The notes beneath the pieces are model-generated. The model worked only from the letters and a program-made list of their open reading frames with translations. It was not told where the DNA came from and made no database searches. A stretch of DNA of 64,000 nucleotides. It comes from Escherichia coli. Its GTDB lineage: Bacteria > Pseudomonadota > Gammaproteobacteria > Enterobacterales > Enterobacteriaceae. Positions 24,160 to 24,859 of this stretch are shown here, one piece after another. The DNA lies in assembly GCF_001677475.2 (NCBI RefSeq), contig NZ_CP015229.1; one strand, 5' to 3'. Every line of letters begins with the position of its first letter. The stretch's first letter is position 1. The position numbers and the translations under genes are program-made.

Positions 24160-24240
24160 CGGTAGGCTACGGGGCGGCGACCTTGCGGATTTTCGCTATT
24201 TATGAGCCTTTTCGGGTTGGTGGTGGTGGTTTTGTTTTTC
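24160..24240 (+). other. lambda-type cos site (cosN core GGGCGGCGACCT at 24172-24183)
   Basis: ACGGGGCGGCGACCTTGCGGATTTTCGCTATTTATGAGCCTTTTCGGGTT vs lambda left end GGGCGGCGACCTCGCGGGTTTTCGCTATTTATGAAAATTTTCCGGTTT; ~135 bp upstream of the Nu1-like gene. Confidence 0.75.
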
Positions 24241-24316
24241 GCTCTATCTCTATGAATAAAAAGGGAAAGATAACACCAACACACCAACCTGAAACCTTAA
24301 CTAAGTGGGGATATTG

Positions 24317-24859
24317 ATGAAATCGCACCTGATGAACAAAAAAACTATGGCGCAAAGCTGCCGCGTAAGTGCGACAGCGTTCGACAAGTGGGGAGTAACT
24401 CCCGTTGAGCGTAAAGGCCGTGAGGCGTTTTATGATGTTGCCAGCGTGATAGACAATAGGGTTAACAATGCAATTAACCAGCTTACAAACGACAAAGGCG
24501 AGATTGATGATGATGAACTTTTACGCGTAAGAATCAGATTAATGACGGCCCAGGCGGAAGCGCAGGAACTTAAAAACGAGCGCGAACGCGGCGAGGTGAT
24601 TGATACAAAGTTTTGCATCTACGCGATTTCAAAACTGGCGAGTCAGATTTCATCAATCATGGACAGCCTCCCGCTCACAATGCAAAGGCGCTTTCCCGAT
24701 ATAAGGCCGTATATGCTGGATGAACTAAAAAGGGAAATAGCCAAAGCATGTAACGCATGTGCAAGACTTGACGAAAACCTGCCACAGATACTGGCTGATT
24801 ACCTGATGGAAACTACCGGAAGCGCGCCTGAGAAGTTGCTACAGAACAAAGGCGAGTAA
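24317..24859 (+). CDS. small terminase subunit, lambda Nu1 family (Rpp-like packaging redirection candidate)
   Basis: ...LMTAQAEAQELKNERERGEVIDTKFCIYAISKLASQISSIMDSLPLTMQRRFPD... matches lambda Nu1 ...LTRAQADAQELKNARDSAEVVETAFCTFVLSRIAGEIASILDGLPLSVQRRFPE...; no large terminase gene follows. Confidence 0.85.
   Translation: MKSHLMNKKTMAQSCRVSATAFDKWGVTPVERKGREAFYDVASVIDNRVNNAINQLTNDKGEIDDDELLRVRIRLMTAQAEAQELKNERERGEVIDTKFCIYAISKLASQISSIMDSLPLTMQRRFPDIRPYMLDELKREIAKACNACARLDENLPQILADYLMETTGSAPEKLLQNKGE

Follow-up and report, generated by a model that had tools for sequence, protein, structure and literature searches.

A lambda-type cos site with an apparently satellite-private cosB and small terminase in a tRNA-Pro island of Escherichia coli

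In a 64,000-nucleotide stretch of Escherichia coli DNA (contig NZ_CP015229.1, assembly GCF_001677475.2; here called the window), a cos site resembling that of phage lambda is followed by a gene for a small terminase subunit (TerS) of the Nu1 family. We assign this region to a TerS-type Gram-negative phage-inducible chromosomal island (PICI) inserted at tRNA-Pro, as its packaging module, and conclude that the island TerS, together with the large terminase subunit (TerL) of a helper phage, probably redirects packaging to the island cos. The analysis established the anatomy of this module, its family membership and conservation, its private specificity, and the absence of a TerL gene.

PICIs carry virulence and defence genes between enterobacteria and, to our knowledge, Rpp is the one case among Gram-negative cos PICIs in which the hijacking of packaging has been worked out mechanistically. 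The module described here belongs to the TerS-encoding Gram-negative PICIs that were already catalogued in 2018, so that the arrangement is not new, and the window's island is itself an ordinary member of a common family. What we add are defined cosB repeats, a link of the TerS DNA-binding domain to the N15 subtype, and natural satellite-prophage pairs.

The cos site and its divergent cosB

The features of the packaging region are as follows (cos positions are counted from the nick, with circularised lambda cos as reference):
24142-24148, + strand: cosQ (GGGTCCT), at -30 to -24, lambda's exact offset, placed by alignment with the lambda right end
24172-24183, + strand: cosN (GGGCGGCGACCT)
24184-24205, + strand: right flank of cosN, matching lambda at 91% identity from +13 to +34
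24215-24237, + strand: R3-like element GGTTGGTGGTGGTGG with the conserved block TGGTGGTGGTTTTGTT (+50 to +66) after it, from a motif scan and a footprint over 26-28 distinct island cosB sequences
24238-24279, no strand assigned: AT-rich spacer with T- and A-tracts between the repeats (+59 to +108 is 70% AT)
24280-24292, - strand: R2-like element ACACCAACCTGAA, +109 to +121, inverted relative to the R3-like element
24317-24859, + strand: island TerS, Nu1 family, 180 aa

The original prediction, made from this sequence alone, had recognised lambda cosN and its immediate flank, and the comparison with lambda bears this out. cosN matches lambda in all 12 positions and is the sole copy on either strand of the window, where about 0.008 copies would be expected by chance (2 x 64,000 / 4^12); TTTTCGCTATTTATGA at 24190-24205 equals lambda bp 19-34, and the left flank (-34 to -1) is 82% identical. 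The right flank presumably belongs to the site recognised by TerL. cosQ, which the original prediction did not mention, is kept in all aligned islands and phages. The lambda-like stretch thus spans 24142-24205 and comprises cosQ, cosN, and the right flank to +34; from +35 identity falls to ~47%, and the segments past +48 are 26-49% identical to lambda, in agreement with the claim that cosB has diverged. A search of the island for a second cos site, as found in the PICI EcCICFT073, returned only 2-mismatch chance matches at 17366 and 19901, leaving one cos site as opposed to the two of EcCICFT073.

Within the diverged segment, the motif scan found the repeats GGTTGGTG/GGTGGTGG at +44 to +58 and an inverted, invariant CACCAACC at +111; as a positive control, the same scan recovered lambda R3 (+53), R2 (+108, inverted), and R1 (+152). 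The position of the R2-like element agrees with that of R2 in lambda (+108) and in a lambdoid helper prophage represented by locus L097 (+111), while the island repeats are unrelated in sequence to the lambda R sites and R1 is absent. The island cosB therewith appears to keep a lambdoid R3-spacer-R2 layout at lambda's spacing, with its own repeat and without R1. A 13-nt inverted repeat pairs 24210-24222 with 24282-24294 at 92% complementarity; chance seldom produces such a repeat (2 of 2,000 shuffled sequences). In the noncoding segment, zero indels were found across the 26-28 distinct island cosB sequences, and although substitution divergence is ~18%, precisely 145 bp separate cosN from the ATG of the TerS gene in 72 of 73 loci. 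Variable columns are concentrated outside the R2-like block (1 of 13 within it, vs 14 of 24 and 18 of 42 in the adjacent segments; 28 distinct sequences).

The closest phage counterparts of this layout are found in N15 and the L097-type prophages. In N15, the scan placed GGTTGTTG at +50, within the R element at +48 to +60, and published scanning mutagenesis puts R3 at bp 48-60; the L097-type cosB carries GGTTGTTG at +51, +111 (inverted), and +188 and shares the R3/R2(inverted) arrangement of the island, from which both differ in having GGTTGTTG instead of GGTTGGTG/GGTGGTGG.

One observation concerns the islands that encode Rpp. ACCACCACC, the invariant core of the Rpp-binding R3-PICI proposed by Murialdo and Feiss (in cos1 of EcCICFT073, locus L009, 22613-22621, +55 to +63), is the reverse complement of the GGTGGTGGT that lies equally far from cosN in the TerS-type islands (window 24221-24229). 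This may be chance, or both kinds of island may use one repeat in opposite orientations.

The island TerS and its restriction to satellites

The TerS gene most likely starts at the ATG at 24317, giving the 180 aa also found in RefSeq homologues, rather than at the GTG at 24305. As the original prediction had stated, the protein encoded next to cos is a Nu1 homologue, and we find it to be full length: it shares 37% identity with lambda Nu1 across 179 aa (E = 2e-35), matches PF07471 Phage_Nu1 (E = 1.9e-22, residues 33-148) and phrog_57 (E = 9e-53, residues 1-172), and can be aligned by sequence over its full length, C-terminal region included, with lambda Nu1, N15 gp1, and phage-21-type TerS (the reference for the latter being the icd prophage of CFT073). 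A phmmer search of PDB sequences matched no chain, the RppC entries 6HLK and 6HN7 being among the chains searched, because the Nu1 and Rpp fragments of known structure are too divergent or not long enough to match.

The N-terminal DNA-binding domain had been described as the island's own. It is indeed present, yet it is not unique to the island: it belongs to the short N15-gp1 subtype (55-59% identity), in which the wing is shorter and 11 aa are missing after helix 3. N15 gp1 and the L097-type TerS share this subtype and the ..AFDKWGV recognition helix with the island protein and differ in the residues preceding it; the island helix reads SATAFDKW, those of N15 and the L097 helper SVQAFDKW, and that of lambda SIRTIQNW. 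The occurrence of Thr together with G-rich repeats, as opposed to Gln together with GGTTGTTG, is consistent with a change in specificity, although it is weak covariation evidence since it represents essentially one evolutionary event. The comparative data supply likely TerS-binding repeats and candidate specificity residues.

The C-terminal region, said in the original prediction to be conserved, is retained but not notably better conserved than the remainder (identity to lambda Nu1 is 41-45% in the C-terminal half vs 37% in the DNA-binding domain). Comparing island alleles with one another gives 96% identity for the DNA-binding domain and just 62% for the part from the LPL motif to the end. 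For the gene as a whole, the ratio of nonsynonymous to synonymous substitutions (dN/dS) is 0.13-0.18; the DNA-binding domain alone gives 0.03-0.18 and the C-terminus 0.19-0.42. Judged by these ratios, the TerS gene is under purifying selection, its C-terminal TerL-binding region included.

The module is common in E. coli. The cosB-plus-terS stretch was detected in 731 of 5,426 complete genomes (~13%), among them O157:H7, O55:H7, and Nissle 1917, and it is intact at >=80% coverage in 721; 38 distinct intact TerS proteins were counted. The window's TerS is a different allele (a 98-100% cluster) from those of the published TerS-encoding islands, at the tRNA-Pro/yejM site. These figures bear on whether the cos site and the Nu1 gene might be functionless leftovers of a degraded lambdoid prophage. 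Such decay could be read from a frameshifted ssb gene in the window's island and from the poor transfer of the TerS-type islands tested in 2018 (both detailed below); the hundreds of intact modules, the many intact proteins with low dN/dS, the indel-free noncoding cosB with its invariant blocks, and a constant 10-12-kb architecture with integrase and primase at several att sites all speak against it, and we rejected this reading as very improbable.

Outside the islands, no counterpart of the pair was found. Among 50,697 phage records, no TerS was more than 48% identical (the best match being N15 gp1 at 47.6%) and none shared the island cosB, the phage DNA matches to the island cos ending at ~+47. 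In a set of 5.8 billion proteins, the TerS relatives at 72-100% identity form an E. coli/Shigella cluster and the next group follows at 55-57%; the three representatives of that group whose context was checked all lie in PICI-like elements without TerL. From these comparisons, we conclude that the cosB and TerS pair is private to satellites. A scan of species-representative genomes with two island-specific N-terminal peptides gave no match.

The prediction that no large subunit follows also held. A tblastn search of the window with lambda gpA gave nothing significant (best E = 1.6), the next open reading frame (ORF) encodes 93 aa, and TerL lies beside TerS in 0 of 86 related loci (0 of 80 from IMG/VR and 0 of 6 annotated E. 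coli islands). The island TerS hence departs from the usual Nu1-family arrangement, in which the gene sits just upstream of, and overlaps, that of its partner TerL.

The 55-57% group includes a second satellite TerS lineage (L171-L174, from Logan and JGI contigs) in Enterobacter, Citrobacter, and "Enterobacteriaceae". Its PICIs are embedded in the helper capsid gene E and carry FRG-domain and DUF3892 accessory genes after TerS; the recognition helix reads GVTAFDKW and GGTGGTGG-type repeats occupy the R3 position. One member (L174) has the cosN variant GGGCGGCAGACT.

Satellite-prophage pairs, the packaging slot, and the proposed mechanism

About a dozen loci are helper-embedded PICIs, located in a lambdoid portal gene (at about codon 275) or in capsid gene E, and they offer a view on possible helpers. 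One identical satellite TerS, 82.6% identical to the window's, is embedded in two kinds of host prophage. The first (L092, L093, L098, L101, L103, L142, L068) has its own Nu1 and gpA, ~99% identical to lambda, and the second (L097, L100) combines a phage-21-like TerL with an N15-like TerS sharing 50% identity with the island protein. Satellite and host prophage differ in the type of both cosB and TerS in every embedded pair. The pairs would point to lambda-type phages as candidate helpers, and those with ~99% lambda terminase make the question of satellite TerS and helper TerL on a cos system approachable by lambda genetics. In contrast to the embedded satellites with the same TerS module, which resemble the published helper-embedded PICIs (PMC10111431), the window's island sits at a chromosomal tRNA site; the model element of that class, 11capE, lacks terS (PMC10111431).

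The terminase of the L097-type prophages is itself a mosaic. Compared with the TerL of CFT073 phage 4, theirs shows 44% identity over the first 45 aa and 95% over the remainder, the N-terminal region of TerL being its TerS-binding domain (PMC9026076). This swapped-N-terminus TerL is paired with an N15-like TerS and an R3/R2/R1 cosB of GGTTGTTG repeats in three loci (L097 1-2640, L100 680-2912, L007 29745-32381), an arrangement that may represent a natural swap of TerL's TerS-binding module together with TerS and cosB. A candidate relationship in which the C-terminus of the satellite TerS varies with the terminase type of the host prophage was rejected, the identical TerS occurring with both types. 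In one IMG genome (2617271340), two nearly identical TerS-type satellites (L024 and L025) reside in the portal genes of different prophages, one portal sharing 64% identity with the CFT073 phage 4 portal and the other 97%.

Comparison with known satellites places the TerS gene in a slot that can be filled differently. EcCICFT073 (L009 12931-23655) has the same backbone in the same order, namely int, alpA, an Icd-like gene, DUF4222, primase, ssb, the gpE-like and gpD-like genes, a small ORF, cos, the packaging gene, and the 93-aa ORF, and its slot after cos holds the 144-aa RppA where the window's island has TerS. The Rpp-type cos PICIs likewise keep lambda-type cosQ and cosN and a cosB that is not phage-type; they differ in the packaging gene (144-153 aa vs the 180-aa full-length Nu1 homologue), in the distance from cosN to the ATG (101 bp, as in EcCICFT073, vs 145 bp), and in having a single R3-PICI instead of an R3-like and an inverted R2-like repeat. 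That the island protein might itself be an Rpp was considered and rejected, given the lack of a BLASTP match to RppA, 15% alignment identity, the length of 180 aa, and the retained C-terminal region. Of the island backbones whose primases share 88% identity or more, 21 carry TerS in the slot, 10 carry Rpp, 5 carry neither, and none carries both. The TerS module thus appears to be an alternative solution to Rpp in the same slot.

Three of the islands with neither gene (L125, L166, and L167, on IMG/VR contigs) carry a complete phage-type cosB, with CATGTCCGG/CCGGACATG repeats in L125 and L166 and the GGTTGTTG repeats of the L097-type helper in L167. They represent a third strategy, mimicry of the helper cosB, which brings the alternative packaging solutions of the PICI family in this one slot to three. 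Their existence in the same family lends some weight to the idea that the cosB and TerS of the window's island, too, merely copy the specificity of an unsequenced helper, without any redirection and with the extra TerS acting as dosage or as a passenger; the closest phage TerS, that of the L097 helper type, also has the same cosB architecture. However, the phage records contain neither a TerS above the 48% level nor this cosB, all relatives examined down to 55% identity lie in satellites without TerL, and the host prophage of every embedded pair differs in both elements. We regard such copying as improbable.

The closest published relatives are EcCIIHE3034, EcCI18098, and EcCIRM12579 (Fillol-Salom 2018, Table S1), which belong to the same family and carry the same module. 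The TerS of EcCIIHE3034 (WP_000835278.1, the same protein as the TerS of the Nissle 1917 island) is 86% identical to the window's, and its cosB layout is alike. The published work on the TerS-encoding E. coli PICIs notes that the IHE3034 and 18098 islands "encode TerS" (Fillol-Salom 2018, PMC6092414) and reports near-absent transfer, and it contains no analysis of cosB or mechanism.

We propose that the island retains those parts of cos that are read by a lambda-family TerL, that is cosQ, cosN, and the immediate flanks, and that the phage cosB would have been replaced by a private site, in which an R3-like and an inverted R2-like repeat surround the AT-rich spacer. The island TerS, with its N15-subtype domain and altered recognition helix, would bind these private repeats, and its retained C-terminal domain would recruit the helper TerL. 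In this way, the helper's own terminase would cleave concatemers of the island (four copies amount to ~44 kb) and fill helper capsids with them, to the detriment of helper DNA. Of these steps, we infer the binding of TerS to the repeats, the recruitment of TerL, and the resulting interference with the helper. Support for the mechanism comes from the C-terminal TerL-binding region being kept under purifying selection, from the cosB/TerS pair being private to satellites, and from the mutual exclusion of TerS and Rpp in one slot. There is a precedent in Staphylococcus aureus pathogenicity islands (SaPIs) of the pac type, whose TerS-S pairs with the helper TerL and reads a satellite-private site (PMC6739421), and the logic here would be the same. 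SaPIs differ in using headful (pac) packaging and an unrelated TerS family; the window's island is cos-type, and therefore the TerL cleavage site must also stay on the island. Nothing in the window's island was recognised as an equivalent of Ppi, the SaPI inhibitor. SaPIbov1 is packaged by phage 80-alpha even when this helper lacks terS. Pairing with a helper TerL seems the most parsimonious and best-supported reading.

Several points weigh against it. An integration host factor (IHF) consensus scan of the spacer was negative, and the identical scan detects lambda I1. Induction of prophages gave <1 to 110 transductants for EcCIIHE3034 and EcCI18098 (PMC6092414), and experiments on the packaging mechanism of TerS-type cos PICIs were not found in the searchable literature. 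As compared with the intact 140-aa gene of the APEC17 island, an internal deletion of ~50 bp has shifted the reading frame of the window's ssb gene (21745-22111), of which a 99-aa ORF remains, so that this particular island may be partly decayed. The C-terminal region of the island TerS is 43-53% identical to that of any helper TerS, and similarity of this TerL-binding region did not single out a helper, the top phage match being 55%. One identical satellite TerS occurs both with a lambda-type TerL and with a TerL whose N-terminal 45 aa share 56% identity with lambda's; that a single TerS should pair directly and specifically with both TerL types is not obviously expected. Lambda and phage 21 are specific in which TerS pairs with which TerL (PMC9026076). 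With a C-terminus at most ~53% identical to helper TerS and two TerL N-termini, direct and specific pairing with TerL is something that we only infer, and the satellite TerS should be either TerL-promiscuous or acting through the helper TerS.

The latter option corresponds to what is known of the Rpps, which lack the C-terminal 30-40 residues that bind TerL and mimic the DNA-binding domain of TerS (PMC6739421; PMC9026076); they therefore need the helper TerS as a bridge (PMC9026076), with which they act as a heterocomplex (PMC6739421). By this precedent, the island TerS could form mixed oligomers with the helper TerS through its central region, the helper subunits bringing TerL and the island subunits reading cosB. 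The central region (residues 53-140) is 40-55% identical to helper TerS, including the AQELKN and LPL..QR.FP motifs, and contact with a conserved TerS core would more easily explain how an identical satellite TerS can reside with two helper terminase types. Yet the whole C-terminal TerL-binding region, which the Rpps have lost, is kept (with the C-terminal dN/dS given above), the dimer-interface residues I11, F12, and G13 of the lambda DNA-binding domain are not conserved (island S14, C15, and R16), and the island protein lacks the 11 aa by which helix alpha-3 is extended in lambda TerS. We thus consider bridging unlikely, though less so than the copying of a helper's specificity.

Returning to pairing with a helper TerL, it is tempting to combine these observations into one tentative scenario, to which we give somewhat more credence than to bridging, while still doubting it. 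The private specificity would have arisen from an N15/L097-type cos-terS cassette by an SVQ-to-SAT change in the recognition helix and T-to-G changes in the repeats; TerS would serve as a promiscuous adaptor for both lambda-type and L097/21-type TerLs, its fast-evolving C-terminus tracking the helpers while the DNA-binding domain and cosB stay fixed.

The island and its integration site

The original prediction had placed the module on an island, and the context agrees with this: the element spans 10,995 bp between duplicated tRNA-Pro 3' ends (15598-15625 and 26593-26620) and is syntenic with EcCICFT073. Its features besides the packaging region are:
15540-15616, + strand: tRNA-Pro(GGG), found with ARAGORN; its 3' end is the integration site
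15598-15625: attL, one copy of the core duplicated as direct repeat D3 (28 nt), which matches 26593-26620 at 86% identity
15807-17066, + strand: island tyrosine integrase (phrog_1, integrase, E = 1.9e-71; its counterpart in the APEC17 island carries an integrase annotation)
19410-21215, + strand: primase/replicase of the P4-alpha type (phrog_864, E = 4e-190)
21227-21409: probable origin iterons AACTGTTCACC, directly 3' of the primase gene (repeat families D2 and D4, with some inverted pairs)
22329-23369, + strand: homologue of the lambda major capsid protein gpE, corresponding to c1499 of EcCICFT073 (phrog_29, E = 2e-89; synteny)
23379-23720, + strand: homologue of the lambda head-decoration protein gpD, corresponding to c1500 (phrog_49, E = 1.2e-26)
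23732-24115, + strand: AlpA-like helix-turn-helix protein, just 5' of cos (phrog_2790, E = 1.8e-48)
24933-25214, + strand: conserved 93-aa ORF, next after TerS (phrog_1561, E = 1.3e-55; function not assigned)
26593-26620, + strand: attR, the second copy of the tRNA-Pro 3' end (repeat D3)

The genes run in the order integrase, small regulators, DUF4222, P4-type primase with iterons, ssb, gpE-like capsid, gpD-like decoration, AlpA-like gene, cos, TerS, and the 93-aa ORF. The island thereby shows the genetic hallmarks of Gram-negative PICIs (Fillol-Salom 2018), for which a size of ~10-15 kb is typical: it has its own att, int, alpA, primase, and iterons/ori and lacks lysis genes; the gpE-like and gpD-like genes are its only structural genes and do not make up a complete set. 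The iterons at 21227-21409 probably form the replication origin. c1499 is dispensable for both transfer and interference (PMC6092414). The AlpA-like ORF of related islands matches PF05930 Phage_AlpA. The 93-aa ORF, present in most of the 80 IMG/VR loci, comes after either TerS or Rpp in the PICI family, and after RppA in EcCICFT073. No NCBIfam model matched TerS, the 93-aa ORF, the AlpA-like ORF, or an ORF of 142 aa in the accessory region (25338-25766, - strand), and the last had no match in PHROGs either.

The island is flanked by yejM on one side and by a yejO-like autotransporter gene, with narP beyond, on the other, and yejM-luxR is catalogued as a PICI att site (PMC6092414). It is the 3' end of tRNA-Pro that is truly duplicated at the island ends. 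Just upstream of int, 15740-15795 contains four AGTTATACG repeats (two forward and two inverted), which equal the "att core" published for yejM-luxR PICIs; they are present at the left end of the island only and are therefore likelier to be protein-binding sites than the crossover core.

In the right arm, a perfect (GGCT)x11 run occupies 26164-26207, between a PerC-like ORF (25681-26052) and attR; tetranucleotide runs of this kind can change length.

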